Assembly: GCF_048465575.1 (NCBI RefSeq)
Contig: NZ_DBFWLG010000034.1
Location: 16,568-40,567 of the forward strand
From: Alistipes sp.
GTDB taxonomy: Bacteria; Bacteroidota; Bacteroidia; Bacteroidales; Rikenellaceae
Direction of reading: 5' to 3'
DNA: 24,000 nucleotides
Positions 1,513 to 21,982 of this stretch are shown here, one piece after another. Under the pieces are notes generated by a model. The model was given only the letters and a program-made list of their open reading frames with translations. It had not been told where the DNA came from and ran no database searches. Made by a program: the position numbers and the translations under genes. Position 1 is the first letter of the stretch. Every line of letters begins with the position of its first letter.

Positions 1513-3882
1513 ATGAAATACCTGCTATCCCAAATTGCCGCGATCGTGGGCGGTGAAATGACGGGCTGCGACTCCGAGGTGCAGTCGGTGGTGACGGACA
1601 GCCGTTCGCTGACATGCGAACTGGGCGCTGCGCCCTTGTTCGTTGCCATGCGCGGTGCCAACCACGATTCGCACGACTTTGTCGCGCAGATGCGCGACCG
1701 CGGCGTCCGGGCCTTTCTGACCGAAAGGGAGGTGCCGGTGGCCGCGGGGTGCGGGTATGTCGTGGTGGAAAATGCCATCGAGGCTCTGCAACGGCTGGCG
1801 GCGCATCACCGCGCGCAGTTCCGGGGCAGGGTGGTTGCAATCACGGGTTCCAACGGCAAGACGATTATCAAGGAGTGGATCGCCGGGGAGTTGCCCCGGG
1901 AGGTGAAATGCTACCGCTCGCCCAAAAGCTACAACTCGCAGCTGGGGGTACCCCTGTCGGTGCTGATGATAGCGGGCGACGAGGAGCTGGCGCTTATCGA
2001 GGCGGGGATTTCCCGGCCCGGAGAGATGGAGCGGCTGGAGCGCGTGATTCGTCCCGATGCAGTGATCTTCACCTCGTTGGGCGACGCCCATCAGGAGAAT
2101 TTCCGCGACCTGGAACAAAAATGCGAGGAGAAGCTAATACTGGCCCGCCGGGCGCGGACGATCGTCTACCACAGTTTTTACGAACCGCTGGGACAGCTGG
2201 TCGCCGAGCGATTCGCAGACCGCGAAACGGTCGATGCCGCAACGTTTCCCGAGCCCGCCGCAACGGTTGCGGGTAACGCCCCCATGCGCCGCAACGCGCA
2301 ACTCGTCGAGGCGTTCTGCACCGCGACGGGCTATCCGGCCCCCGCATTTACCGCGGTTCCGAGCGTGGCCATGCGGCTCGAGGTGCGGGACGGGATCAAC
2401 GATTCGGTGCTGGTCAACGACGCCTACAACCTCGATCTGAACTCGCTGGCCCTGGCGCTGGACTACCTGCACAACGTGGCGATGGGACGGCCCCGGACGC
2501 TGGTGCTGTCGGACATTGCACAGAGCGGCTTTCGGGACGACGAACTGTATGGCCGCGTGGCGGAGCTGGTCGCCCGCGCGGGTATCGACCGGCTGGTCGG
2601 GGTAGGGCCCGAACTCCGGCGCCACGCGGCGCTTTTCGGGTGCGCGACGGAGTTTTACGCCACGACCGGAGAGTGCATCGAGCGCATGAGCCGCCGTGCC
2701 GTGGCCGGATGCGCCGTGCTCCTGAAAGGGGCGCGGGAATACCGCTTCGAGAAATTGGCACACGCCCTCGCGCGGCAGAGCCACACCACGGTGCTGGAGG
2801 TGGACCTCGATGCCATGATCCACAATCTCAACTATTTCCGCTCGCGCCTCGCATTCGGCACCCGCCTCGTGGCCATGGTCAAGGCGGGGTCGTACGGCAC
2901 GGGCGATTTCGAGGTCGCGCAGCTCTTGCAGCACCAGGGGGTCGACTACCTGGCCGTGGCGTTCGCCGACGAGGGCGTCCGGCTGCGCGAGCGGGGAATC
3001 ACGATGCCCGTGGTGGTGCTCAATGCCGATGCCGACAGTTTCGATCAGATGGTCGCAAACCGGCTGGAACCCGAGATATACAGCGTGCACTCGCTCAGGG
3101 CCTTCGCAGCGGCGGCTGCCCATGCGGGCGAGATGCGCTATCCGATCCACATCAAGCTCGATACGGGGATGCACCGGCTGGGATTCGCGGAGGAGGAGCT
3201 CGCGCCTCTCATCGAGGAGCTGGCTTCGACGCCCGAGGTGCGGGTGGTTACGGTCTTTTCGCATCTGAACTGCGCCGACATGCCCGGCGTGGAGGAGTAC
3301 ACGCGCGCGCAAATCGCCCGGTTCGACCGCATGAGCGCACGGCTGGCGGCGGCGCTGCCCTGTCCTGTACTGCGCCATACAGCCAACTCGGCGGCGATCG
3401 AGCGCTTCCCCGAGGCGCAGTTCGACATGTGCCGCCTCGGACTGGGGCTTTACGGCTTCGGCTGGGAGCACAACGCGGCGCTGCGCCCGGTGGCGACGCT
3501 CCGGACCCGCATCGTGCAGATCAAGCGCCTGGCGGTGGGTGAGGCAGTCGGCTATGGGCGGGCGCAGGTATTGCAGCGCGACAGCGTCATCGCCACCGTG
3601 CCCATCGGATATGCCGACGGGCTGGACCGCCACCTGGGGTGCGGCCGTTGGGCGATGCGGGTGAACGGGCGTCCGGCGCCCATCGTCGGGCGGGTCTGCA
3701 TGGACAGCTGCATGATCGACATCACGGACATTCCCGGCGTCGGCGAGGGCGACGAGGCGGTGATCTTCTCGCCCGAGCCGGGCAATGACCTCGAAACGAT
3801 GGCCCGCGTGCTCGACACGATTCCCTACGAGATCATGACCTCGGTCTCGGCCCGGGTGAAACGGATTTACCTCAAGGAGTAA
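1513..3882 (+). CDS. Bifunctional UDP-N-acetylmuramoyl-tripeptide--D-alanyl-D-alanine ligase (MurF-like) / alanine racemase fusion protein
   Basis: 789 aa. The N-terminal half has the Mur-ligase P-loop (AITGSNGKTIIKEW) and NDAYNLDLNS (MurF DAYNANP-like). The C-terminal half has the alanine racemase PLP-lysine motif (VAMVKAGSYGTG) and GRVCMDSCMIDIT. Confidence 0.93.
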   Translation: MKYLLSQIAAIVGGEMTGCDSEVQSVVTDSRSLTCELGAAPLFVAMRGANHDSHDFVAQMRDRGVRAFLTEREVPVAAGCGYVVVENAIEALQRLAAHHRAQFRGRVVAITGSNGKTIIKEWIAGELPREVKCYRSPKSYNSQLGVPLSVLMIAGDEELALIEAGISRPGEMERLERVIRPDAVIFTSLGDAHQENFRDLEQKCEEKLILARRARTIVYHSFYEPLGQLVAERFADRETVDAATFPEPAATVAGNAPMRRNAQLVEAFCTATGYPAPAFTAVPSVAMRLEVRDGINDSVLVNDAYNLDLNSLALALDYLHNVAMGRPRTLVLSDIAQSGFRDDELYGRVAELVARAGIDRLVGVGPELRRHAALFGCATEFYATTGECIERMSRRAVAGCAVLLKGAREYRFEKLAHALARQSHTTVLEVDLDAMIHNLNYFRSRLAFGTRLVAMVKAGSYGTGDFEVAQLLQHQGVDYLAVAFADEGVRLRERGITMPVVVLNADADSFDQMVANRLEPEIYSVHSLRAFAAAAAHAGEMRYPIHIKLDTGMHRLGFAEEELAPLIEELASTPEVRVVTVFSHLNCADMPGVEEYTRAQIARFDRMSARLAAALPCPVLRHTANSAAIERFPEAQFDMCRLGLGLYGFGWEHNAALRPVATLRTRIVQIKRLAVGEAVGYGRAQVLQRDSVIATVPIGYADGLDRHLGCGRWAMRVNGRPAPIVGRVCMDSCMIDITDIPGVGEGDEAVIFSPEPGNDLETMARVLDTIPYEIMTSVSARVKRIYLKE

Positions 3883-3888
3883 GCGTGT

Positions 3889-3905
3889 GCGGCTCTCGGA
3901 GCCGC
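3889..3905 (+). terminator. Possible stem-loop after the murF-alr stop (GCGGCTC tcg GAGCCGC); no U-tract follows
   Basis: Perfect 7-bp stem read from the sequence, but it is followed by a C-run rather than a T-run. Confidence 0.3.
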
Positions 3906-3952
3906 CCCCCCCGGCGGAGACCCCCGATGCGTGCCCCGGAGGCTGCAACCCG

Positions 3953-3989
3953 AATTCTTCATTTTTAATTCTTAATTCTTCATTTCTTT
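3953..3989. repeat. AT-rich heptad microsatellite (AATTCTT / CATTTTT / AATTCTT / AATTCTT / CATTTCT) running into the start codon of the next gene
   Basis: Read directly: aattcttcatttttaattcttaattcttcatttcttt. It is a conspicuous AT island in GC-rich DNA. Confidence 0.9.
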
Positions 3990-4704
3990 GGAACCCGGAA
4001 CCCTCTACCTGATCCCCTGTCCGATTTCGGACCAGACGGCACCGTGGGAAGTGCTGCCCGCGGCCAACCGCGCGGTGATGGACGCGCTGGACTATTTCAT
4101 CGTCGAGAATACGCGCTCGGCGCGGCGGTTTCTCTCCGCGGCGGGCATTGCACGGCCGATCGGCGAACTGGAGTTCCGCGAACTGAACGAACATACGACG
4201 GCCGGCCGCGAGGTCGAGGAGCTGGTCGAACCGCTCGCTGCTGGCCGCTCGGCGGGCGTGATCTCCGAGGCCGGCGTGCCGGGCGTGGCCGATCCCGGAG
4301 CGCTGGTGGTCGAGGCGTGCCACCGGCGCGGCATCCGCGTGGTGCCGCTCGTGGGGCCGTCGTCGATCATCCTCGCGGTGATGGCTTCGGGGCTGAGCGG
4401 GCAGTCGTTCGCATTCAACGGCTACCTCCCGGTCAAGCCGCCCGAGCGGGCCCGGGCTATCCGCCATTTCGAGCGGCGCGCCTTGCAGGAGGGGCAGTCG
4501 CAACTTTTCATCGAGGCGCCCTACCGCAATATGAAACTCCTGGAGCAGCTCCTGGAGATACTTGCGCCCGCGACGCGCCTGGCCGTGGCCGTGGACCTCA
4601 CGGCGCCCGCCGAGAGCGTCCGGATGCACGAGGTGGCCCGCTGGCGTACGCTGCCCCGGCCCGAAATGAACAAACGTCCGGCCATTTTCATCATCGGCCG
4701 ATAG
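3988..4704 (+). CDS. RsmI-family (tetrapyrrole-methylase fold) SAM-dependent methyltransferase
   Basis: 238 aa, collinear with E. coli RsmI: GTLYLIPCPISD (GQLYIVPTPIGN), ENTRSARRFL (EDTRHTGLLL), ISEAGVPGVADPG (VSDAGTPLINDPG), GIRVVPLVGPSS. There is an in-frame stop at 3973-3975, and TTG at 3988 is the only plausible start. Confidence 0.85.
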   Translation: MEPGTLYLIPCPISDQTAPWEVLPAANRAVMDALDYFIVENTRSARRFLSAAGIARPIGELEFRELNEHTTAGREVEELVEPLAAGRSAGVISEAGVPGVADPGALVVEACHRRGIRVVPLVGPSSIILAVMASGLSGQSFAFNGYLPVKPPERARAIRHFERRALQEGQSQLFIEAPYRNMKLLEQLLEILAPATRLAVAVDLTAPAESVRMHEVARWRTLPRPEMNKRPAIFIIGR

Positions 4705-4720
4705 CGCAAACCGCGTGGTA

Positions 4721-4729
4721 TACAATTTG
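4721..4729 (+). promoter_or_regulatory. Near-consensus Bacteroidota -7 box (TAcaaTTTG, one extra spacer nt) upstream of grpE
   Basis: Matches the Bacteroides sigma-A -7 consensus TAnnTTTG apart from one inserted nt. It lies 39 nt upstream of the grpE ATG. No clear -33 TTTG. Confidence 0.25.
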
Positions 4730-4767
4730 ATCGAATAGGTGGAAAGAATAACCGAAAAACAAGCGAT

Positions 4768-5370
4768 ATGAAAAAGGAAAAAATTTATAATGAGGAGGTT
4801 AGGGACCACGAAGAAGCCGCAGGCGGACCGAATTGCACCCCCGGCGAAACCGAGCCGCGTGCCAATGTGGCAGACGGGGAGCGGCAGGCGACTGACACAA
4901 TGGCAGACGCCGCCGGAGAGGAGGGTGCGGACGAGCGGCTTGCGGCGGCGGTAGCCGAGTGGCAGGACAAGTTCATGCGTTTGCAGGCCGAGTTCGACAA
5001 CTACCGCAAGCGCACGCTGCGCGAGAAGATGGAACTGGTCGAGAGCGGTGGACGCGATGTGCTGCTCGAAATGCTGCCCGTGCGCGACGACGTGCAGCGC
5101 GCCGTGGATGCCATGCACAAGTCGGACGACCTGGAGGCCCTGCGCGCCGGGGTGACGCTCATCTCGCAGAAATTCACCGAAGCGCTGCGCCGCAAGGGGG
5201 TCACGGAGATCGACGTGGCGGGCAAGGAGTTCGACGCCGACCTGGCCGAAGCGGTGGCGCGGTTCGATGCGGGCGAGGAGAAGCGGGGCCTGGTGATCGA
5301 TGTCGTGCAGACGGGTTACATGTTGGGCGACAAAGTGCTGCGCTTTGCGAAAGTAGTTGTAGGAGAATAG
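4768..5370 (+). CDS. grpE: GrpE nucleotide exchange factor
   Basis: 200 aa. Contains [21 protein letters not shown], the GrpE signature, and sits 4 nt upstream of dnaJ. Confidence 0.95.
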
Positions 5371-5374
5371 GATC

Positions 5375-6544
5375 ATGGCAGAAAAAAGAGACTACTACGA
5401 GGTGCTCGGCGTTCAGAAGAACGCCAACGCCGACGAAATAAAGAAGGCCTACCGCAAGGCGGCCATCCAGTATCACCCCGACAAGAATCCGGGCGACAAG
5501 GAGGCCGAGGAGAAATTCAAGGAGGCCGCCGAGGCCTACGACGTGCTCTCGAATCCCGACAAGCGGGCCCGTTACGACCAGTTCGGCCACGCCGGCATGA
5601 GCGGTGCGGCGGGCGGCGGTGCCGGGGGTTATGGCGGCTTCAGCGGCGGCGGATTCACGATGGAGGATATCTTCTCGCAGTTCGGCGACATCTTCGGCGG
5701 CCATTTCAGCGGCGGGGGTTTCCGGTCGGGTTCGTCTTCCGGGCGTCGCGTGAACCGCGGTTCGGACATCCGCATCAAGGTGAAGTTGACGCTCGCGGAG
5801 ATCGCCTCGGGCGTGACGAAGAAACTGAAGATCAACAAGACCGTCGCCTGCGACAAGTGCGGCGGCTCGGGCGCACAGGATGCCAACTCCTACTCGACCT
5901 GCTCGACGTGTCACGGCACGGGGCACGTGACGCGCGTGGAAAACACGTTCTTCGGGCGGATGCAGACCGAGGGTGTCTGCCCGACGTGCGGCGGTACGGG
6001 CAAGGTCATCACCTCGCCTTGCGACAAGTGCAAGGGCGAGGGAACGGTCCGCGGGCAGGAGGTCGTGGAGATCCAAATTCCGGCCGGCGTGGGCGAAGGC
6101 ATGGTCCTCACGGTTACGGGCAAGGGCAATGCCGCGCGCCATGGAGGCGTCAACGGCGACTTGCAGGTTTTGATCGAGGAGGAGCGCCATCCGGAGCTGA
6201 TGCGCGATGGCAACGACCTGATCCACAACCTCAATATCACCGTTACGACGGCCATCCTGGGCGGCTCGGTCGAGGTGCCCACGGTGGACGGGCGCGCCAA
6301 GATCAAAATCGCACCCGGCACGCACGCCGGCAAGGTGCTTCGTCTGGGCGGCAAGGGCATTCCCGACGTCAACGGATACGGCCGCGGCGACGAGTTGGTG
6401 GTGGTCGACATCACCATCCCCTCGAAACTCAACGCCGAGGAGAAGCGTCTGGTCGAGCAGTTGGCCGCGCAGCCCGATTTCCAGAAAGCCGAATCGGTCC
6501 GCAACCAAAATATCTTCGAGCGGATGAAGAGTTTTTTCCGGTAG
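5375..6544 (+). CDS. dnaJ: Molecular chaperone DnaJ
   Basis: J-domain (DYYEVLGV...[18 protein letters not shown]), G/F-rich linker and four CxxCxGxG zinc-finger repeats ([32 protein letters not shown]). Confidence 0.97.
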
Positions 6545-9307: not shown

Positions 9308-9452
9308 ATGAAAAAATGGATTGTGGCGGAAAGCGGAGAAATCCGGAGCCTCGCATTTGCGACCTCTCGGGAAAGCCGCCGCAGGCGGATTGCAGTGCAT
9401 TTGTGGATAGGAGTGCAAACAGCGAAGAATAACAAATAGAGAAAAGATAGAA

Positions 9453-10055
9453 ATGAACCGTTTTTTTCAGACCCCGCCGGTTGTCAAGAATTTGATAATC
9501 ATCAATCTGCTGATCTTCATGGCCACGGCCCTGCTGCCCGTGGGCGAGCGGATCATGGGCTGGGGCGCGCTTTCGCTCGGAACGCCGCTCTTCCACACCT
9601 ACCAGTTCATCACCTACATGTTCCTGCACGCCAATTTCGAACACATCTTCTTCAACATGTTTGCCCTGTGGATGTTCGGGCGCACGCTGGAGTACGAACT
9701 GGGATCGAAGCGGTTTCTGATCTATTACATGATCTGCGGCGTGGGCGCCGCGCTGATCCAGTACCTCACGGCCCTGGCCTTTGGCGAACTGCCCCTTTTC
9801 CTGGTCGGCGCTTCGGGGGCGGTGATGGGGCTGCTGCTGGCATTCGGGGTGATGCACCCCAACGCGGTCATCATGCTGCTGATCCCGCCCATCCCGATGA
9901 AAGCCAAGTGGTTCGTCATCATCTACGCCGTGATCGAGCTGTTCCTCGGCTGGCGGGGCGTGGGCAATGTGGCCCATTTCGCCCATATCGGCGGCATGCT
10001 TTGGGGCTTTCTGCTGCTCCACTGGTGGAAACGCAGGGGGATAATCCGCTTCTGA
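9453..10055 (+). CDS. Rhomboid-family intramembrane serine protease
   Basis: 200 aa, polytopic. Has the HxxxxHxxxN motif (LHANFEHIFFN), the catalytic GxSG (GASGAVMGLL) and the TM6 His (AHFAHIGGMLWG). Confidence 0.93.
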   Translation: MNRFFQTPPVVKNLIIINLLIFMATALLPVGERIMGWGALSLGTPLFHTYQFITYMFLHANFEHIFFNMFALWMFGRTLEYELGSKRFLIYYMICGVGAALIQYLTALAFGELPLFLVGASGAVMGLLLAFGVMHPNAVIMLLIPPIPMKAKWFVIIYAVIELFLGWRGVGNVAHFAHIGGMLWGFLLLHWWKRRGIIRF

Positions 10056-11872: not shown

Positions 11873-14962
<3,090 letters not shown>

Positions 14963-15032: not shown

Positions 15033-16475
15033 TTATTTTTTGACCCAGACGGCCAGCTTGCCGCCCCGGACCTTGAAGAGGGCTTTGCCGTCGGGACCGA
15101 TGGTCACCTCTTCGTCGATGCTGCCGGTGATCTCGTGCCACGTCTCGCCTGCGTGCGCTTCGCCCACGCTCATCTCCTTTTCGCCGTCCTCGCCGTTGGA
15201 GAGGAGCAGGGCCACTCCCGAACCGGGATGCTCCGCATCGCCCGTGCGCGTGAGCCCGACCGTGCTGGGGTGGTCGAAATAATCGTTCTGATCGCCGAAA
15301 GCCTTGCTGCGGCGCGCTTCGAGCAGGATGTCGAGAATCTTGCGGTGGGGCGACGCCTCGCCGCCCATGCTGTAATAGTCGCCGTAAAAGATGCACGGAT
15401 AGCCCTCTTTCATCAGGAGGATCAGTGCGTAGGCCTGCGGCTTGAACCACGATTTGACCTGCGACTCGAGCGAGCTGCCCCGCTGCGAGTCGTGGTTGTC
15501 GACGAACGTGACCGCCAGGGTGGGGTATTTCTTGACCAGCGTGTCGTCCAGCAGCGTGCGCATGTCGAACCCGCCGCCCTCCTGCGAAGCCTGGAAGAGT
15601 TTGAAATGGAGCGGCGCGTCGAACAGATCGACCGAGTGGTCCACGGCATCGAGGTAGGCCTCCAGGTCGGCGAAATCCCCGCTCCAGTACTCGCCCACGG
15701 CGTAGAACTCCTTGCCCCGCGCGGCCCGGACGGCGTGCATGAAATCGGCGATGAAGCTGTTTTCGATGTGCTTGAGCGCATCGAGCCGCATGCCGTCGGC
15801 GTCGAGCGTCTCGGAGATCCAGACGCCCCATCTCTTCATCTGGTCCACGACCTCGGGGTGGTCGAAATCGACATCGTTGAAGATCAGAAAGTCGTAGTTT
15901 CCGTTCTCGCTGTCGACGCCCTCGCTCCACCTTTTGCCCTCGCCCTGGATGAGGTAGATGGCCCGCTTGCCCGTTTCGTACACCTGGTCGGTGCCCGAGA
16001 AGTGGTACCAGTGCCATTTGAAATCGGAGTATTTGTCGCCGCGGCCCGGAAAGGTGTAACCGGTCCAACCCTCGACCTCCTTGGGCTCGCCGATGATCTT
16101 CTCGCGGTCGGTAGGGTCGACCTCGCGGGCCATGAATTTCTCGGTGTAGTCGGCCCCCGTTTTCTGGTTCATCACCGTGTCGATATAGACCGAAATGCCG
16201 TTTTCGTGCAGGGCTGCGACGGCCTCTTTCAGCTCCGAGATGGTGCCGTATTTGGTCCGCACGGTCCCTTTCTGGTCGAATTCGCCCAGGTCGTAGAGGT
16301 CGTAGACGGCGTAGCCCTCGTCCTGCTGCTCGTCGGCCTTGTAGGCGGGCGGAATCCATACCGACGTCACGCCCGCGTCGTGCAGGTGCTTTGCGTCTTC
16401 TTTCAGTTGTGTCCACAGTTTTCCGTCGTTGGGCAGATTCCATTCGAAATACTGCATCATTACTCCGTTTTTCAT
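15033..16475 (-). CDS. Cytoplasmic GH13 alpha-amylase (Bacillus licheniformis / E. coli AmyA type, GH13_5-like)
   Basis: 480 aa from MKNGVMMQYFEWNLPNDGKLW, with no signal peptide. Has GH13 regions II DGMRLDALKHI, III YAVGEYW and IV FVDNHDSQ. Region I reads DTVMNQ. The tracked 840-aa ORF is this gene plus an artefactual upstream extension. Confidence 0.92.
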   Translation of the reverse strand: MKNGVMMQYFEWNLPNDGKLWTQLKEDAKHLHDAGVTSVWIPPAYKADEQQDEGYAVYDLYDLGEFDQKGTVRTKYGTISELKEAVAALHENGISVYIDTVMNQKTGADYTEKFMAREVDPTDREKIIGEPKEVEGWTGYTFPGRGDKYSDFKWHWYHFSGTDQVYETGKRAIYLIQGEGKRWSEGVDSENGNYDFLIFNDVDFDHPEVVDQMKRWGVWISETLDADGMRLDALKHIENSFIADFMHAVRAARGKEFYAVGEYWSGDFADLEAYLDAVDHSVDLFDAPLHFKLFQASQEGGGFDMRTLLDDTLVKKYPTLAVTFVDNHDSQRGSSLESQVKSWFKPQAYALILLMKEGYPCIFYGDYYSMGGEASPHRKILDILLEARRSKAFGDQNDYFDHPSTVGLTRTGDAEHPGSGVALLLSNGEDGEKEMSVGEAHAGETWHEITGSIDEEVTIGPDGKALFKVRGGKLAVWVKK

Positions 16476-16519
16476 AGCGTTCGTATTTGTTTCGCTGCCG
16501 CATACTGCAAAGCGTGTGC

Positions 16520-16558
16520 AAAAACGGCAAGGCGCCCCGAAAAACGTTTCGGGACGCC
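16520..16558 (-). terminator. Stem-loop between the catalase and amylase genes
   Basis: On the - strand: GGCGTCCCGAAA cgtt TTTCGGGGCGCC (12-bp stem with one mismatch). The T5 run follows only after a 6-nt spacer. Confidence 0.45.
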
Positions 16559-16582
16559 CTGCGCGGTGCGGTCGGGAAGCAC

Positions 16583-17551
16583 TCAGTCCTGCTCGGCCGG
16601 CTCGCGGCGGCGACTCTTCGGGGCCTCGTCGTAGTCGGACCACTGGAGGTTCGAGGTGGGCATAGAACGCTTGATCTCCTGGCTGCGCTCCTTGCTCAGC
16701 CGCTTGTCGGCCGTGCGAACCGTGGAGGTCGTGCGGTCTGTGCCCACGGGTTTGAGGTCCGTCAGCCCCTCGGTGCGGACGACCTGCTCGTAGGGGTTCT
16801 CGACATACTGCCAGTCCTCGCCCAGTCCCGTGCTGACGCCTTCGTTCCACGGTCCGCGGGCCTCCTCGCCCATCGAGTGGTTGGAGTAGAGGTTGCTGTA
16901 ACGCGGGTCGCTTTGCAGCACGCCCGGCGGGAAATTGGGCTGAATGGTGTCCAGCGCGGCCTCGAACTGCTGGAAGTGGGCCACCTCGCGCGTCATCAGG
17001 AAATTGAGCGTGGCCTGCACGTCCTTGTCGTCGGTGAACTGCATGAGGTATTCGTAGACGATCTTGGCACGCGACTCGGCGGCGATGTCCGACCGCAGGT
17101 CGACCGTCAGATCGCTGTTGGCATTGACGTAGGCGCCCTGCCAGGGGAAGCCGTTGCTGTCCGTCAGGCGGGGGCCGCCGCCCGTCAGCACGCCGAACTG
17201 CGGATTGATCGAAAAGGCCGCATGGATCACGTCCTCCTTGCTGTTGCCCTCGCCGAAGACGTCGTTCTTCTCGGCGGCGTCCTTGAGGTTGCCGTTGACC
17301 CCGGCCAGCAGCATCTGGATGGTGGCGCCGACGATCTCGAGGTGCCCGAGCTCTTCGGTGGCGATGTCCATCAGCATGTCGTACTTGTCGGGATAGGGGT
17401 TGTGGCAGGCGAACGCCTGGACGAAATACTGCATGGCAGCTTTCAATTCGCCGTTCGGGCCGCCGAACTGCTCGAGCAAAAGGCGGGCGAAACGGGGGTC
17501 CGGGCGCGATACCCGGGCGTTGAACTGGAGTTCTTTGGAGTGGAAAAACAT
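16583..17551 (-). CDS. Manganese catalase family protein
   Basis: 322 aa. N-terminus MFFHSKELQFNARVSRPDPRFARLLLEQFGGPNGELKAAMQYFVQAF and the di-Mn ligand motif ATEELGHLE are typical of Mn-catalases (KatN/YdbD/CotJC family). Confidence 0.93.
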   Translation of the reverse strand: MFFHSKELQFNARVSRPDPRFARLLLEQFGGPNGELKAAMQYFVQAFACHNPYPDKYDMLMDIATEELGHLEIVGATIQMLLAGVNGNLKDAAEKNDVFGEGNSKEDVIHAAFSINPQFGVLTGGGPRLTDSNGFPWQGAYVNANSDLTVDLRSDIAAESRAKIVYEYLMQFTDDKDVQATLNFLMTREVAHFQQFEAALDTIQPNFPPGVLQSDPRYSNLYSNHSMGEEARGPWNEGVSTGLGEDWQYVENPYEQVVRTEGLTDLKPVGTDRTTSTVRTADKRLSKERSQEIKRSMPTSNLQWSDYDEAPKSRRREPAEQD

Positions 17552-17683
17552 ACAATTATCGTTTTAATTGGTTGAACTTGCGGCAGGGCCTGAATCGTCC
17601 GAAAAGGCACCGATCTGTTCCGTACAGGGCAAATGGCTTGCCAAAAAAAACGGTTTGCGAGGAGTTTGCGGTCCTTGAAACCC

Positions 17684-17712
17684 ACAAAAAAACGGCCGCC
17701 GACGCGGCCGTT
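17684..17712 (-). terminator. Rho-independent terminator of the S/Y/G/Q-rich protein gene
   Basis: On the - strand: ACGGCCGC gtcg GCGGCCGT immediately followed by TTTTTT, 14 nt after the stop codon. Confidence 0.75.
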
Positions 17713-17725
17713 ACTTGCGTTAGGA

Positions 17726-18397
17726 CTACTTGCAGCAGTCGGAACTCTTCTTTTCGGACGAGGAGCCGTAGCCCGATTCTTTCTCTTTCTCGGGATCGAG
17801 GCTGCCGCCGTGGCTCGAGCTCTGGCCTCCGCTGCAAGGGCTGCCCTGGCCATACTCTTTCTCGTTCTGGCCGTATTGACCATGCTCTTTCTGGCCCTGG
17901 GCGTACTGGCCGCTCTGGCTCTGCTGGCCATACTCCTGCTGGCCCTGGCCGTATTGGCTGCCCTGACCGTACTGGCCGCTCTGACCCTGCTGGCCGTACT
18001 CCTGCTGGCCCTGGCCATATTGGCTGCCCTGACCTTGCTGGCCATACTGACCGCTCTGCGAGGAGGAGCCGTGGCTCTGGCCCTGGCCGTATTGGCTGCT
18101 CTGACCGTACTGGCCGCTCTGGCCCTGCTGGCCCGACTGGTATTTGTCGCCCAAGCTCTCTTCGTTCATCTTGCTGCCGTAGCTCTGGCCCGAGCCGCTG
18201 TTCTGGTGTCCATAGGACGAGCCCGACTCGTCTTTCCACGACGAGCCGCCGGTCTGCTGCTCCTGATAGGACTTGTTCTCGGTGCCGGGATAGGGCTGGT
18301 CGCTCTGCGAGTTCTGGCTGCCCGATTCGTAGCCGTTGCCCGTCGAATTTTTCATCTTCTCACGATCTTCGCCGTACATGTTGTCTTTCTTTTCCAT
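17726..18397 (-). CDS. S/Y/G/Q-rich intrinsically disordered hydrophilin-like protein (no recognised family)
   Basis: 223 aa from MEKKDNMYGEDREKMKN (internal ATG of ORF 17726..18436). GC-rich third codon positions, its own terminator, and the same strand as the neighbouring stress genes. The sequence is dominated by (S/Q/E)YGQ motifs. Confidence 0.8.
   Translation of the reverse strand: MEKKDNMYGEDREKMKNSTGNGYESGSQNSQSDQPYPGTENKSYQEQQTGGSSWKDESGSSYGHQNSGSGQSYGSKMNEESLGDKYQSGQQGQSGQYGQSSQYGQGQSHGSSSQSGQYGQQGQGSQYGQGQQEYGQQGQSGQYGQGSQYGQGQQEYGQQSQSGQYAQGQKEHGQYGQNEKEYGQGSPCSGGQSSSHGGSLDPEKEKESGYGSSSEKKSSDCCK
17897..18028 (-). repeat. Intragenic tandem duplication, 2 x 66 nt (22-aa unit GSQYGQGQQEYGQQ(G/S)QSGQY(G/A)Q)
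   Basis: Units 17897-17962 and 17963-18028 differ at only a few nucleotides. More degenerate copies flank them. Confidence 0.9.
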
Positions 18398-18473
18398 AAT
18401 CGAAATTTTAGGTGGTTCTGCTCTATGAACATGCAAATCGCGTACAAAGAGCGGATGGACGGGACCGAAAATG

Positions 18474-18719
18474 CTACCGTCCGTAGGTGTTGTCGTGCCC
18501 CTCGGTCTTGACGACCTTGTTGTAGAGGCCCATGATCAGGAGCGGTGCCGCCCACTGGCCCACCATCAGCGCGGTGTGCTTGCGCCGGCCGTGCATCAGG
18601 CACATGGAAACGGTCAGGGCGCTCAGACCGGCTACAAGATAGACCATCGAAGGAATCTTCGAGGTCCGTTTTTCGACGGCAACGGTTGCGCTGCCCTCTT
18701 TGGATTTATCGTTGTACAT
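18474..18719 (-). CDS. Small (81 aa) two-helix membrane protein, hypothetical
   Basis: Two hydrophobic segments (IPSMVYLVAGLSALTVSMCLM and ALMVGQWAAPLLIMGLY) between charged termini. Third codon positions are GC-rich. Confidence 0.7.
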   Translation of the reverse strand: MYNDKSKEGSATVAVEKRTSKIPSMVYLVAGLSALTVSMCLMHGRRKHTALMVGQWAAPLLIMGLYNKVVKTEGHDNTYGR

Positions 18720-18733
18720 TTATGTTGCGGTTT

Positions 18734-18765
18734 AAAAAACCCGGAGCAGGCGCGCCTGCTCCGGG
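18734..18765 (-). terminator. Rho-independent terminator of the lipoprotein gene
   Basis: Perfect 26-nt palindrome CCCGGAGCAGGCG/CGCCTGCTCCGGG followed on the - strand by TTTTTT. Confidence 0.8.
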
Positions 18766-18784
18766 CAGTTCGACAATCGGTTGA

Positions 18785-20032
18785 TTAATAGATCGTGACT
18801 TTGATCAGTTCGTTCACGGCGGGAACCGGGAACGTGCTGCCGACAGCCGTGATGGGCTTGTCCTCAGGCATGACCGTACCGCCGAAGATGTACTGGGCAT
18901 TCCCTGCACCGGGGTACTGGCTGATGGCCGTACCGTCGTCGAGCAGTACCGTCTTGCTGGTCACGTCGCCCTTGGTCAGAGCGGCCAGCGCGGGACCGTT
19001 GGCGAAGAACCAGTCGTTCGAATAACCGAACATGGTTGCGAATGCCACTTTCTCGTTGGTTGCGGCATCGTAGGTGCACGACAGGCTCTCACCCGGCTCG
19101 GCGGTCTCGGTGATCGTGTAGATCTTGCGGACCTGCGGAACTTTCTCGAGCGAGGTCTTCAGCGGCGAGGGATCGCCGCGCTGTGCCAGAGCGGCCAGAC
19201 CGAGCTGTGCGTCTTTCTGGTTGAGCGTATAGATGGGGTTCGTGTCACCCGTGTAGACCACGACGATGGCGCCTGCGAGGGTGGTGATGATACCCGTCTG
19301 CGAAGCTACGAGCGTCTGAAGCGGCGAAACGTTGCTGTTCTCGGCCAGCTGCGTGAGCTCGGTGCTCGATTTCTGGTCGACGCTGAAGAACGGCTTGTCC
19401 ATTACCAGCTCGCCGTCCAGGATGTTCGATACGACGAATACGCCGCCCGAGAAAGGAGTCGAGTTGGCCGTGTTGTTCGAAATGTTGGTGATCGTGCAGG
19501 TGAAGAGCGACTGCGCTACATCGTAGGCCAGGCTGACCTGGAACATGTCCGAAGCGGCGGGGTAGGTGTGGCCTGCGGCATCGGTGCCGTTGACCTCGGT
19601 GACGACGCCCGTCTGGGGAGTACCCGGGTGCGATACGCCGGGCCCCGGCTGCTCGTTGACGCGCGTTCCGTTATCCCACAGCTTCACGGCATTGGCCACG
19701 ATGCCCGTGTTGGGCACGCCCTGGTCGTTGAAAAGTGCGATACCCGGGTTGGCGGGAGCGAAGAACAGGTCGTTCGAATTGCTGTACTTGGAAACCAGCA
19801 TCAGGCGCTGCCCTTTGGCGGCGTAGAACGTAAACTGCGAGGTGGCTCCGGGAGCTGCCGCAGCGAAGGTACCGCTCTGAACATAATTTTTCTTCGCAAC
19901 GACATTCTCGAACTTGATGGTCGGTTTGGTACCGGGGGCACCGTTGTCGTCATCGTCATCGCACGCGGTAAATGCGAATCCTGCGAACAGCAAAGCCGCA
20001 GCGAGCGCGGCGGAAAAGTACTTTTTTTTCAT
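18785..20032 (-). CDS. Lipoprotein with two tandem spondin_N-like domains (function unknown)
   Basis: 415 aa. Signal peptide plus lipobox (LLFAGFAFTAC followed by DDDDD). Two internally similar halves each carry an xSNDxFFA motif (YSNSNDLFFAP and GYSNDWFFANGP). TPFSGGVFVVSN resembles the bacterial spondin_N PLSPGVWAVH motif. The domain call is from memory and unverified. Confidence 0.85.
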   Translation of the reverse strand: MKKKYFSAALAAALLFAGFAFTACDDDDDNGAPGTKPTIKFENVVAKKNYVQSGTFAAAAPGATSQFTFYAAKGQRLMLVSKYSNSNDLFFAPANPGIALFNDQGVPNTGIVANAVKLWDNGTRVNEQPGPGVSHPGTPQTGVVTEVNGTDAAGHTYPAASDMFQVSLAYDVAQSLFTCTITNISNNTANSTPFSGGVFVVSNILDGELVMDKPFFSVDQKSSTELTQLAENSNVSPLQTLVASQTGIITTLAGAIVVVYTGDTNPIYTLNQKDAQLGLAALAQRGDPSPLKTSLEKVPQVRKIYTITETAEPGESLSCTYDAATNEKVAFATMFGYSNDWFFANGPALAALTKGDVTSKTVLLDDGTAISQYPGAGNAQYIFGGTVMPEDKPITAVGSTFPVPAVNELIKVTIY

Positions 20033-20165
20033 AGCTGATTTTGATAATTAATTAAGTGAATATTCGGTTTAACCGTTGTTGCTTTTTATTATAATGTATC
20101 GGTTCATATCAATCGTCGGGATACTCTCCCGGCACATTACCTTGCATCATTAATGCCATAAAAAT

Positions 20166-20173
20166 TACTTTTG
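20166..20173 (+). promoter_or_regulatory. Perfect -7 box TActTTTG with cTTG 21 nt upstream; promoter of the VIT1 gene
   Basis: Exact TAnnTTTG match. TTG at 20142-20144 gives a 21-nt spacer that contains the palindrome CATTAATG (20148-20155). Confidence 0.5.
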
Positions 20174-20370
20174 CGCGGATCGGATTCGCTCACCGGATGC
20201 ACCGCATTGGAAAACACGGGATAAAGGATGCGGAAAATTTTTCGGATGATTTCCGGCCGCCGACCCGTCGGGCGGGAGAAGCCTTTCGGCAGCTGTTTTG
20301 CAGGCAGGCATGCGATGAAAAAGTCACGCTCGGGCTTCCGAAAGCCTTGCGACGCACGAATCACACCAAG

Positions 20371-21234
20371 ATGAACCGAACGACGAAAAACCTGCTCGCC
20401 TTGCAGCGGGACGAAATCACCTTGTGCGAAACCTATCGCCGCCTGGCCCGCTCCGAGAAAGATGCCGGGCGCCAGGCCGTGTTCGTACGCCTTTTGCAGG
20501 ACGAGATACGGCATTGCGATGCGCTGCGCAGCCACACCGGGTGCGAGGTGGCGCCCGATGTCAAGCGGGTCGTACGCTATGTCTGGACGGGACGGATGCT
20601 GGGGCCTGCGTTCGTGGCGCGGCAGATGGAGCGGCGCGAAAAGGGGACCGAGCTGGGGTATGCCCGCTACTGCAAAGGGGCCGAGTTCGTGCAAATCGGC
20701 CTCGACGAACGACGGCACGGCGAGGAACTGACCCGTCTGGCCGCCGGGGTGCGGCTCTCGTACATGAGTTCCGTGGTGCTGGGGCTGAACGATGCGCTGG
20801 TCGAATTCACGGGGGCGCTCGCGGGCTTCACGCTGGCGTTGAACGATCCGCGTCTGGTGGCGCTCACGGGCGGAATCACGGGTATTGCGGCGGCTCTTTC
20901 GATGTCCGCCTCGGAATACCTCTCGACCAAGACCGACCGCAAGGGCGAAAAGCATCCGCTGCGTGCGGCCGGTTGTACGGGTGCGGCCTACATCCTCACC
21001 GTCGGGATACTCATAGCGCCCTACCTGATTTTCTCCGATGCGCTGGTGGCGTTGGGCGTCATGCTCGCGGCGGCGCTGCTCGTGATCGCTCTGTTCAACT
21101 ACTATTATGCGGTGGTGCGGCGCGAGAGTTTTCGGAGGCGGTTTCTCGAAATGGCCATCCTCAGCTTCGGCATTGCCGGGATCAGCTTTTTGATCGGCTA
21201 CCTGCTCAAGTTGATCGTCGGGGTCGACGTATAG
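20371..21234 (+). CDS. Ferritin-like domain / VIT1 (CCC1) family iron-manganese transporter
   Basis: 287 aa from MNRTTKNLLALQRDE. The N-terminal four-helix di-iron pattern is E, ExxH, E, ExxH (QRDEITL, QDEIRH, ERREKG, DERRHG). The VIT1 membrane domain follows (VVLGLNDALVEFTGALAG, SMSASEYLSTK). An upstream ATG at 20197 is an alternative start, but the added 58 codons have a clearly lower third-position GC. Confidence 0.85.
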   Translation: MNRTTKNLLALQRDEITLCETYRRLARSEKDAGRQAVFVRLLQDEIRHCDALRSHTGCEVAPDVKRVVRYVWTGRMLGPAFVARQMERREKGTELGYARYCKGAEFVQIGLDERRHGEELTRLAAGVRLSYMSSVVLGLNDALVEFTGALAGFTLALNDPRLVALTGGITGIAAALSMSASEYLSTKTDRKGEKHPLRAAGCTGAAYILTVGILIAPYLIFSDALVALGVMLAAALLVIALFNYYYAVVRRESFRRRFLEMAILSFGIAGISFLIGYLLKLIVGVDV

Positions 21235-21240
21235 AAACGA

Positions 21241-21283
21241 ATTGCGCGTGTACTTTCCCCCGGGAGAAAGCAACACGCGCAAT
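21241..21283. terminator. Bidirectional stem-loop between the convergent VIT1 and LEA-like genes
   Basis: ATTGCGCGTGT / ACACGCGCAAT (11-bp perfect stem) with inner CTTTC/GAAAG pairing around CCCCGGGA. Confidence 0.65.
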
Positions 21284-21301
21284 CGTGTCTGGCAGGTGCC
21301 G

Positions 21302-21631
21302 TCAGTCGTGCTTCTCGTGGAAGCGGTTGGTGGCCTGATCGACCTTTTCGTCGAACCAGTTGGAGGTTTTGGTCGCCCCCTCCTCGACCTTGTTCTTGAT
21401 CTTCGTTGCAGCTTCGTCGATCTTGCCGCCGGCCTTGTCCATCCCCGAGCGGGTCTCGTTCTCGGCTTTCTTGAACCCCTCTTCGGTGCGGTGGGCCGCC
21501 TGCTGCCCTTTCTCCTCGAGGGTGTGTTCGGCCTCGCGGCCGTGCTCTTCGGCCCGGTTCACCGCTTTTTCGGCGTGGTCGTGCAGGGAGTCGGCGAAAC
21601 GCTCATGGCGTGTGGTGTCGTCGTGTTTCAT
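21302..21631 (-). CDS. His-rich, highly charged helical hydrophilin (LEA/CsbD-like stress protein; family not recognised)
   Basis: 109 aa, MKHDDTTRHERFADSLHDHAEKAVNRAEEHGREAEHTLEEKG.... It has no hydrophobic segment and, by my count, nine His. It starts 13 nt after the glsB-type gene. Confidence 0.8.
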   Translation of the reverse strand: MKHDDTTRHERFADSLHDHAEKAVNRAEEHGREAEHTLEEKGQQAAHRTEEGFKKAENETRSGMDKAGGKIDEAATKIKNKVEEGATKTSNWFDEKVDQATNRFHEKHD

Positions 21632-21644
21632 GGTGTAATGTGTT

Positions 21645-21908
21645 TTAACGTGTAGTGGTTGTTCTGCTGTGACGCGTGATGAGCGATACGATCCACAGGA
21701 GGACCACCGCTCCGATGACCGAGGCGATCAGCGTGCCGAACGTTCCGGTCGGCACCCATCCGAAGAGGGAGACGAGCCAGCCGCCCAAAAGGCCGCCGAT
21801 CAGTCCGACGATCAAATTTATCAGAAGGCCGGACCCGCCGCCCTTGACAATCAGGTTGGCGATCCATCCGGCCACCAGACCTATGAGCAAATACCAGAGA
21901 AAATACAT
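21645..21908 (-). CDS. GlsB/YeaQ/YmgE-family (transglycosylase-associated) stress-response membrane protein
   Basis: 87 aa from MYFLWYLLIGLVAGWIANLIVKGGGSGLLINLIVGLIGGLLGGWL, the typical Gly-zipper three-helix pattern of PF04226-type proteins. This uses the internal ATG of ORF 21645..21944. Confidence 0.88.
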   Translation of the reverse strand: MYFLWYLLIGLVAGWIANLIVKGGGSGLLINLIVGLIGGLLGGWLVSLFGWVPTGTFGTLIASVIGAVVLLWIVSLITRHSRTTTTR

Positions 21909-21982
21909 AGTTTTGTTGTGTTGGTTACGCACCCGAATGTGCAAAATCCGTACCCACGGAGATTATCCGACGCAAATAGATG

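Follow-up and report, generated by a model that had tools for sequence, protein, structure and literature searches.

The yciGFE-katN locus of Salmonella is RpoS-dependent and the YdbD and GsiB proteins of Bacillus subtilis are sigma-B-dependent. In Enterococcus gls24-glsB is a general stress operon, and the erythrin-VIT1 protein MbfA, a membrane-bound ferritin-like iron exporter of alpha-proteobacteria, is regulated by Irr. To our knowledge Bacteroidota have neither RpoS nor sigma-B, and the coordination of general stress protection in this phylum is poorly understood. We analyzed in silico a block of seven consecutive small genes, among them those for a Mn-catalase, a VIT1-family metal exporter and a GlsB/YeaQ membrane protein, in 24,000 nucleotides of an Alistipes sp. 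genome (the whole stretch, from contig NZ_DBFWLG010000034.1, is called the window; Table 1). On balance, the block is probably a lineage-specific cluster of seven small protective genes that belongs to one Alistipes sub-clade and lies within a sigma-54 (RpoN) stress regulon.

A 2025 survey with a position-specific scoring matrix found sigma-54 promoters of Bacteroidota enriched at GroEL/ES, GrpE, DnaJ/K, IbpA, HtpG and Clp/Lon genes and called grpE and groES of Bacteroides thetaiotaomicron sigma-54-dependent (PMC12316311). The functions that it lists are chaperones, proteases, ABC permeases and ribosomal proteins, with 0 occurrences of catalase (PMC12316311). An experimental precedent for catalase is found in Myxococcus xanthus, where PexR/sigma-54 controls katB and ahpC; PexR homologues are reported only in Myxococcota, Acidobacteriota, Nitrospirota, Planctomycetota and Pseudomonadota (PMC12754779). 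Nothing specific was found in the literature on RpoN promoter mapping in B. thetaiotaomicron or F. psychrophilum, nor on the Alistipes Mn-catalase.

The assignment to Alistipes agrees with the window catalase, which is 85% identical to that of Candidatus (Ca.) A. excrementavium and 84% to that of A. timonensis. Synteny was surveyed at 80 loci anchored on Mn-catalase (one genome per species), each searched for the six other block proteins, and a second survey anchored on VIT1 was made in metagenomes. Loci are designated L001 (the source contig), L002 (Ca. A. excrementavium), L003-L007 and L010 (the A. timonensis-type clade) and L032 (an A. senegalensis metagenome-assembled genome). All seven open reading frames (ORFs) of the original prediction, a note made from the letters of the window, are present where it placed them. 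Most of its gene identities were borne out, as was a flavodiiron FprA gene 1.5 kb past the block, where Lactamase_B, ODP and Flavodoxin domains are found. Comparison with orthologues places the start of VIT1 at 20368 and not at 20197. Only three products (the S/Y/G/Q-rich, 81-aa and 109-aa proteins), and not four, lack a Pfam or NCBIfam family. Long ORFs antisense to the real genes (e.g., 15033-17555, 17633-18511, 20137-21282) were rejected as high-GC artefacts.

Candidate Promoters of the Block

The window was scanned with the sigma-54 consensus yTGGCACGrnnnTTGCw, whose -24 GG and -12 GC stand at fixed spacing. With GG and GC required and at least 9 of 12 positions matched, 13 sites were found, as against a shuffle value of 8.5. 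The sequence upstream of the block units, ~1.1 kb when read in the correct orientation, holds four of the 13 (binomial estimate ~2e-4), before the genes for catalase (17643(-)), lipoprotein (20158(-)), VIT1 (20287(+)) and GlsB (21955(-)). A leave-out matrix was then built, to prevent circularity, only from the catalase sites and the sites of MKES-type hydrophilins (a small protein family described below) in other genomes. At a score of at least 10 it matches the 24-kb window five times (block-shuffle mean 1.27, maximum 3); all five matches are inside the block, four in promoter position and the fifth within the VIT1 coding sequence. The catalase box TGGCAAGCCATTTGCC (score 19.3) and the VIT1 box CGGCAGCTGTTTTGCA (17.8) carry both the -24 GG and the -12 GC. 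Over 2.75 Mb of strand, a strict form of the pattern occurs 37 times, and ~24 of these sites precede catalase or small MKES-type hydrophilin genes. Housekeeping promoters were also considered and rejected: a sigma-70 scan gave 1 site versus 2.1 expected, and the boxes do not have the TAnnTTTG and -33 TTTG geometry.

Alignment of the regions upstream of orthologous blocks reveals short identity islands, GG(C/T)A-N7-TTTG(C/T), in otherwise diverged spacers, and the VIT1, GlsB and lipoprotein boxes have been kept where the intergenic DNA around them has diverged. A TGGCA-N6-TTTGCW box with fixed GG-N10-GC spacing is located 100-141 nt 5' of the catalase gene in 19 further species-level genomes of Rikenellaceae. 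It reads TTTTTGGCA-N5-TTTTGC(A/T); the background of a looser box pattern is 0.1 per 300 nt. The VIT1 box has the form CGGCA(G/A)ATTTTTTG(C/T)G at -69 to -81 in 68/72 related loci, GGGTA...TTTG is invariant before GlsB in 51/52 (with TTTGCA or TTTGTA at -12), and a TGGCATTAATGATGCA-type box with a nearly invariant spacer precedes the lipoprotein gene in 66/66, the metagenome counts being made up of many contigs of few species that are phylogenetically non-independent. The S/Y/G/Q box appears as TTGTACG-N4-TTTGCA/TTTGTA before the homologous hydrophilin gene in four other loci (L002, L016, L018, L078). The 81-aa and amylase genes have no box with the pattern used for the counts in related loci.

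The same promoter class is found at a stress operon elsewhere in the window. The box TGGTATACAATTTGAT upstream of grpE-dnaJ is among only nine window matches of the pooled matrix, and its score of 9.4 with the leave-out matrix puts it in the top nine as well. In Bacteroides groES-groEL loci, an order-level comparison only, TGGCACAGTTTTCGTA is found at the same spacing ~85 nt 5' of the genes. Taken with the published survey (PMC12316311), the grpE-dnaJ box places the promoters of the block in a class already ascribed to sigma-54 at stress genes of the phylum. An exact 9-mer, CGCAAACCG, lies 8 nt 5' of the catalase box (17651-17659 (-)) and 2 nt 5' of the grpE box (4705-4713 (+)); it has three exact copies in the window and is not enriched there when one mismatch is allowed. 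A weak box-like sequence, TTGCAGTGCATTTGTG, was also seen at 9390-9405 (+), 47 nt before a rhomboid gene (9453-10055).

Several observations weigh against control of the block by sigma-54. The grpE box has GA at the -12 position, which is normally critical for sigma-54. Within the block, the -24 doublet of the S/Y/G/Q box is TG and not GG, the lipoprotein box reads ATGCA at -12, and the window GlsB box, which itself has both doublets, is replaced by forms with GT at -12 in most orthologues. No box was found before the 81-aa gene in any locus scanned, and the catalase gene of the A. timonensis clade lacks a box of its own, so that read-through from upstream or another promoter would be needed there. 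The VIT1 coding sequence itself contains a box of high score (TCGTACGCCTTTTGCA, 16.1) 115 nt past its start (20483-20498 (+)), which may be an internal promoter or have arisen by chance. The upstream regions showed neither a conserved upstream activator sequence (UAS) nor a conserved dyad before the catalase boxes. The invariant spacer and dyad symmetry of the lipoprotein box fit a repressor or Fur-type operator at least equally well, and the non-independence of the metagenome loci lessens the weight of the counts above.

The catalase leader contains a second conserved feature. The element GGTCTTTTCGG, of the form (A/T)CGG..C...G.GGTC(T/C)TTTCGG..CA, lies about 5-35 nt 3' of the catalase box (window ~17590-17615 (-)); it is kept in most species, with GGTCTTTTCGG falling 20-35 nt past the box, and has an equal position in L009-L032. 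RNAalifold gave no consensus structure for 16 catalase leaders, which argues for a sequence element rather than a structural one. An Rfam scan of 16-24 kb found no RNA family at E of 1 or less, and thus no riboswitch accounts for the long leaders. Words resembling TTTCGG/CCGAAA are present in the VIT1 and grpE leaders too.

These features have to be weighed with the possibility that the block is a stress neighborhood under conventional regulators (OxyR/PerR/Fur-type, extracytoplasmic function (ECF) or housekeeping sigma factors), in which case the GG..TTTG sequences would be operators or promoters of another Bacteroidota-specific sigma factor. The lipoprotein/VIT1 16-mer TGGCATTAATGATGCA has the look of an operator, as it is nearly palindromic, its spacer does not vary and it contains half a Fur box (TAATGAT), and its assignment is therefore ambiguous; placed ~130 bp 5' of the VIT1 box, it may be an operator or an enhancer. 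Several other boxes lack a GG or GC doublet, GGTCTTTTCGG, which has no RNA structure, resembles a protein-binding site, and TTTG is the core of the Bacteroidetes housekeeping -7 element too. However, the catalase, VIT1 and small-hydrophilin boxes fit yTGGCACGrnnnTTGCw with exact spacing. They have neither the TA of TAnnTTTG nor a -33 TTTG at 19-21 nt, and their spacers vary freely between species, as expected for promoters but not for operators. We therefore regard conventional regulation of the block as unlikely. A perfect palindrome, CGGTT-N-AACCG (20066-20076), was also noted ~35 nt before the lipoprotein ATG, 3' of the putative box, in six species (L003-L007).

Sigma-54 control, which we favor, calls for an activator. 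The DNA analyzed does not include rpoN, and no bacterial enhancer-binding protein (bEBP) is present among the window-encoded proteins. The genus does encode sigma-54 activators. In the A. senegalensis genome (L032) a protein with REC, Sigma54_activat and AAA_lid domains and no helix-turn-helix is encoded at 13312-14442 (-), 2.3 kb from the catalase gene. An Alistipes activator of this kind, devoid of a DNA-binding domain, would make a UAS unnecessary and would fit the negative UAS search. The window shows no enrichment of the PexR-type UAS CACCG-n6-CGGTG (4 versus 2 expected) and has no copy of it in promoter regions. In the stretch that separates the VIT1 box from the divergent lipoprotein box, an A/T-centred partial palindrome occupies 20223-20252. 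The L032 locus also has an ECF sigma gene 6 kb away (3780-4361 (-)) with a box-like TTCTCGGCATGTTATTTGCT ~210 nt 5'.

Table 1. Genes, candidate promoter boxes and terminator hairpins of the block, with the grpE-dnaJ comparator. Scores are those of the leave-out matrix.
Feature	Position	Strand	Remarks
Mn-catalase (322 aa)	16583-17551	-	PF05067
S/Y/G/Q-rich disordered protein (223 aa)	17726-18397	-	composition, no family
81-aa small membrane protein	18474-18719	-	no Pfam family
Spondin-domain lipoprotein (415 aa)	18785-20032	-	NF038123
VIT1-family metal exporter, MbfA-like	20368-21234	+	PF01988
109-aa His/Glu/Lys-rich helical hydrophilin, late embryogenesis abundant (LEA)-like by composition only	21302-21631	-	
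GlsB/YeaQ (Transgly_assoc) membrane protein	21645-21908	-	PF04226
Weak box TTGCACACGCTTTGCA before GH13 alpha-amylase gene (15033-16480)	16506-16521	-	
Catalase -24/-12 box TGGCAAGCCATTTGCC	17628-17643	-	92 nt 5' of ATG
Degenerate box TTGTACGCGATTTGCA before S/Y/G/Q gene	18432-18447	-	score 13.2
TGGCATTAATGATGCA, -24/-12-like box of lipoprotein gene or dyad operator shared with VIT1	20143-20158	-	
VIT1 -24/-12 box CGGCAGCTGTTTTGCA	20287-20302	+	65 nt 5' of ATG
GlsB -24/-12 box GGGTACGGATTTTGCA	21940-21955	-	31 nt 5' of ATG; score 10.1
Terminator hairpin after catalase gene	16527-16562		-35.5 kcal/mol
Terminator hairpin after S/Y/G/Q gene	17691-17712		-24.2 kcal/mol
Terminator hairpin after lipoprotein gene	18739-18766		-26.1 kcal/mol
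Bidirectional hairpin between convergent 109-aa and VIT1 genes	21237-21286		-34.6 (- strand), -30.8 (+ strand) kcal/mol; z -6.1, -4.0
grpE-dnaJ box TGGTATACAATTTGAT	4716-4731	+	36 nt 5' of grpE ATG
grpE (4768-5370) and dnaJ (5375-6544), comparator outside the block	4716-6544	+	Pfam GrpE E=7e-40; DnaJ

Terminators and Transcription Units

Most of the genes had been described as individually terminated. Hairpins do follow the catalase, S/Y/G/Q and lipoprotein genes and lie between the convergent 109-aa and VIT1 genes, but none was found directly after GlsB or after the 81-aa gene. The block hairpins have z of -3.4 or lower, with U-tails at the catalase, S/Y/G/Q and lipoprotein ones, and 20 terminator-like structures are observed in 14-24 kb versus 9.7 expected. 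The gap of 13 bp between GlsB and the 109-aa gene points to a two-gene operon with GlsB first. Strong hairpins follow four of the four to five transcription units, an arrangement that supports separately terminated units rather than a single operon. The terminator of the lipoprotein gene is itself conserved in sequence in 6 species (18739-18784 (-): CCGGAGCAGG-N4-CCTGCTCCGG-T5-6), and the ATG of the 81-aa gene is 15-20 nt past its T-run.

Conservation of the Block in Bacteroidota

Co-localization of the seven families in other Rikenellaceae or Bacteroidales, a check proposed with the original prediction, is limited to one Alistipes sub-clade and absent from other Alistipes and other Bacteroidota. 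Among the 80 catalase loci, those of A. timonensis and of five relatives, each a species-level genome (L003-L007, L010), are the only ones with the complete block, and ~60 human-gut metagenome contigs carry the same block in the VIT1-anchored survey. Ca. A. excrementavium retains hydrophilin-catalase-amylase only, while the catalase has other surroundings in ~25 other Alistipes/Rikenellaceae and ~45 other Bacteroidota genomes. VIT1 homologues with ~50% identity have none of the block partners nearby. Synteny in only one sub-clade indicates a young, clade-specific block.

In the A. timonensis clade the block has two inserted genes, SRAP/YedK-like and PepSY-like, and a small S/T-rich hydrophilin gene after the amylase. 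The two inserted genes sit between the 109-aa gene and VIT1 (L003 6345-6779 (-), L005, L006), and TGGAATAC-N3-TTTGCA is located 55 nt 5' of the PepSY-like one. The neighbors of catalase across Bacteroidota include Thioredoxin_5/DsbA-like (23 loci) and DUF892/YciE-F (8 loci) proteins, as well as KGG/YciG-type (L069), YtxH-like, GlsB and DUF4142 proteins. Beyond the window end, past FprA (L001 1201-2442), a tyrosine integrase (Arm-DNA-bind_5/Phage_integrase) and a SusC-type gene are encoded.

It may be asked from this distribution if the block is a functional unit at all, or a set of unrelated small genes kept together by descent in a young clade, on which a stress theme has been imposed. A promoter class that is common to the units but scarce in the rest of the window argues for a functional unit. 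So does the recurrence of catalase with a non-homologous hydrophilin in Alistipes (L016, L018, L078), Mucilaginibacter (KGG) and Tannerellaceae (YtxH, GlsB), as does the similar box of the PepSY-like gene inserted in the block of relatives. Descent alone would nevertheless be compatible with synteny that is seen only in close relatives (catalases 82-85% identical) and with the unrelated neighbors of catalase in other Alistipes and of the distant 81-aa and VIT1 homologues, and three of the products are without known function. We consider it improbable that the grouping is devoid of functional meaning.

Horizontal acquisition of the block as a genomic island from a mobile element is highly improbable: a tyrosine integrase gene lies ~1.7 kb past FprA in the source contig, GC is 0.56-0.60 across 17.5-22 kb versus 0.62-0.67, and the flanks differ (UDP-glucose dehydrogenase/FprA in the window species, a GH13 enzyme in the A. 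timonensis clade), but the GC dip is due to AT-rich intergenic regions and Q/S/G/K-rich genes, the catalase-amylase end keeps a stable place in the chromosome across species, and the promoter type is the host's own, as at grpE. Nor were repeats, a tRNA or att-like features seen at the borders of the block, where no search aimed at them was made.

Gene Products

The catalase matches PF05067 (E=2e-66), shows the metal-ligand motifs EELGH and EVAH in its translation and has a hydrophilic C-terminal tail of 67 aa. It reaches 180 bits with the NCBIfam ManCatBAC equivalog, whose cut-off is 350 bits, and is thus assigned to a divergent subfamily. A cytoplasmic GH13 alpha-amylase is always encoded 3' of catalase in the clade (window 15033-16480 (-), L003 2926-4893, L057 11747-13924). 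Its candidate box TTGCACACGCTTTGCA has the form TTGCATG.G.TTTGC(A/T) kept in L002, L003 and L005, but is doubtful because it lacks the GG doublet. GlgX-like GH13 genes occur at most 7 kb from catalase in 13 loci, Dyadobacter included, and this proximity may link catalase to glycogen or trehalose metabolism.

The exporter matches PF01988 above the gathering score (E=2e-15), which confirms the VIT1 part of its earlier description as a ferritin-like/VIT1 protein. The ferritin-like part is less clear: the N-terminal 130 residues hold two ExxH motifs (DEIRH, DERRH), and residues 15-55 match Rubrerythrin below the cut-off (E=0.014, 16 bits). A PDB sequence search with the VIT1 protein gave no match.

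The lipoprotein has the signal ...FTAC and matches the NF038123 spondin domain in two stretches (E=4e-51). The 81-aa protein has 164 homologous clusters, all unnamed and none with a Pfam domain, whose named sources are Alistipes, Tannerellaceae, Dysgonomonas and 'Prevotella sp. 10(H)'. The family shares an invariant C-terminal motif, ...VGQWAAP.L(I/L)(M/L)G(L/V)YNK(V/I)VKT(E/Q)GHD. Homologues are encoded directly 5' of catalase in Pedobacter and Dyadobacter loci. The 81-aa protein was considered as a fixed catalase partner and rejected, as in Dysgonomonas and Tannerellaceae it is found in unrelated contexts and without a box; the context in 'Prevotella sp. 10(H)' is likewise unrelated.

Hydrophilins are defined by Gly above 6% and high hydrophilicity. 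The S/Y/G/Q protein (Gly 21%, Gln 20%, Ser 19%, Tyr 9%; grand average of hydropathy (GRAVY) -1.84) qualifies by its Gly content and GRAVY, while the 109-aa protein (Gly 6%, His 8%, GRAVY -1.60) is borderline. The S/Y/G/Q gene contains a 66-bp (22-aa) tandem repeat x3.5 at 17867-18133 with an 18-bp sub-period (Tandem Repeats Finder). Two features recur in its orthologues (L002-L007, L010, L016, L018, L078), which are 96-257 aa long: M.(D/N)K.N.(Y/H)GE.RE at the N-terminus and two paired Cys residues (CC, CGC) at the C-terminus. A hydrophilin with this type of N-terminal motif is encoded directly 5' of catalase in other Alistipes. The composition resembles the [G/S]Y[G/S] low-complexity domains of eukaryotic FUS-type proteins. 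Searches of the window proteins gave no LEA, CsbD, KGG or YtxH family match (Pfam, NCBIfam, E of 0.01 or less).

The MKES-type hydrophilins are a 64-103-aa S/T-rich family, MKES(T/N)NKTS...NNPEG(H/I)NQYTKK, without a Pfam family and absent from the window. Their genes sit just 3' of catalase or amylase (L020, L022-L024, L028, L002, L003, L005), each preceded by TGGTA(C/T)-N5-TTTTG(C/T)A.

GlsB matches PF04226 (E=1e-12). Its operon partner, the 109-aa protein, belongs to no family and has sub-threshold phasin/apolipoprotein-type matches and no Asp23 match. A word-index search found no homologue of it, while with HMMER a set of 1.84 billion representatives yielded only 13 relatives, none annotated, with the common motif ...AGK(I/L)EEAG.K(V/I)KN..KEG.... 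Outside the block, a 789-aa ORF (1513-3882 (+)) fuses Mur-ligase domains to a complete alanine racemase (Ala_racemase_N/C).

A Sigma-54 Stress Regulon in Alistipes?

The block looks like a co-regulated stress set, as had been proposed, because most of its units have one unusual promoter type, the -24/-12 class, in common. Its controller, unknown in the original prediction, now has a concrete candidate in sigma-54 (RpoN), with the promoter class seen at grpE-dnaJ. According to this model H2O2 would be removed by the Mn-catalase and iron or manganese exported by the erythrin-VIT1 protein, the other parts being the membrane proteins GlsB and 81-aa, one surface lipoprotein and two intrinsically disordered hydrophilins. 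Most units would start at a -24/-12 promoter of the sigma-54 type, and RpoN-RNA polymerase together with an ATP-dependent enhancer-binding activator encoded outside the window would switch the cluster on as a whole. Within a sigma-54 stress regulon that includes grpE-dnaJ, the cluster would form the branch for oxidative stress, metals and hydrophilins, and the regulon would fill the role that RpoS or sigma-B has elsewhere. The gene identities, the terminators, the reach of the synteny and the occurrence, spacing and conservation of the boxes are direct observations; recognition of the boxes by sigma-54, joint induction of the units, the kind of stress that induces them and protection by the three proteins without a family are inferred from the sequences.

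A wider hypothesis is possible but tentative: RpoN might be the general-stress sigma factor of Alistipes, perhaps of Bacteroidales, as a convergent replacement of RpoS/sigma-B. It would govern chaperones, Mn-catalase, exporter, GlsB and fast-evolving disordered 'shield' proteins through a receiver-AAA+ activator without DNA-binding domain. A role in desiccation or ex-host survival, suggested earlier, is speculation.

If sigma-54 does read the boxes, a simple scan for the motif would suffice to map the regulon in any genome of Alistipes or Bacteroidales, and the activator could be found, as genomes have few proteins with a Sigma54_activat domain. A context would also be provided for the FUS-like S/Y/G/Q protein, the LEA-like helical protein and the 81-aa membrane protein conserved across Bacteroidota. 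The tolerance of Alistipes to O2 and H2O2 bears on its transmission and on its behavior in inflamed guts.

Comparison with Known Systems

The description of the block as an undescribed system was overstated. It is better seen as a local cluster of sigma-54 stress regulon members, since the likely control by sigma-54 would extend a regulon type already proposed for Bacteroidota and not define a new kind of system. The sigma-54 chaperone promoters of Bacteroidota share with the block the phylum, the -24/-12 class and the box at the window grpE-dnaJ; Mn-catalase, hydrophilins, GlsB and VIT1 would be additions to the surveyed set (PMC12316311). In the Myxococcus PexR system, as is proposed for the window, a catalase is transcribed from a -24/-12 promoter, and the organism does not place that gene under OxyR/PerR-type control (PMC12754779). 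It differs in that the window catalase is a Mn (non-haem) enzyme of another phylum, with neither CACCG-n6-CGGTG dyads nor an adjacent GAF-type bEBP (PMC12754779). If our reading is correct, the block would hold the second independent sigma-54-controlled catalase after that of the PexR system.

The other parallels differ in depth. In the exporter, the C-terminal VIT1 domain after an N-terminal domain with two ExxH motifs is reminiscent of MbfA, whose role in H2O2/iron stress would suit the neighboring catalase. The N-terminal domain of the window protein, however, reaches only E=0.014 with Rubrerythrin, and a -24/-12 box precedes its gene where Irr regulates in alpha-proteobacteria. Enterococcus gls24-glsB likewise combines a GlsB/Transgly_assoc membrane protein with a co-transcribed small hydrophilic protein, but the window partner has no Asp23/Gls24 domain and the order is reversed, with GlsB first.

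In yciGFE-katN and YdbD/GsiB, as in the block, a Mn-catalase stands beside small hydrophilic stress proteins; it is under an alternative sigma factor there, as is proposed for the block. The analogy with yciGFE-katN is apt in function, given that catalase is found beside KGG/YciG-like, DUF892, YtxH and GlsB proteins in other Bacteroidota, but it does not extend to homology, as the window lacks homologues of YciG, YciE and YciF. Nor do the parallels drawn with B. subtilis and Enterococcus hold at that level: the three small proteins have no Pfam match to GsiB, CsbD or Gls24, no window protein matches KGG or DUF892, and none of the small proteins is homologous to GsiB or CsbD. The proposed sigma-54 belongs to an unrelated family and needs an ATPase activator, so that the block, if correctly interpreted, would represent a further convergent 'Mn-catalase plus hydrophilin' module under a third, unrelated sigma factor.

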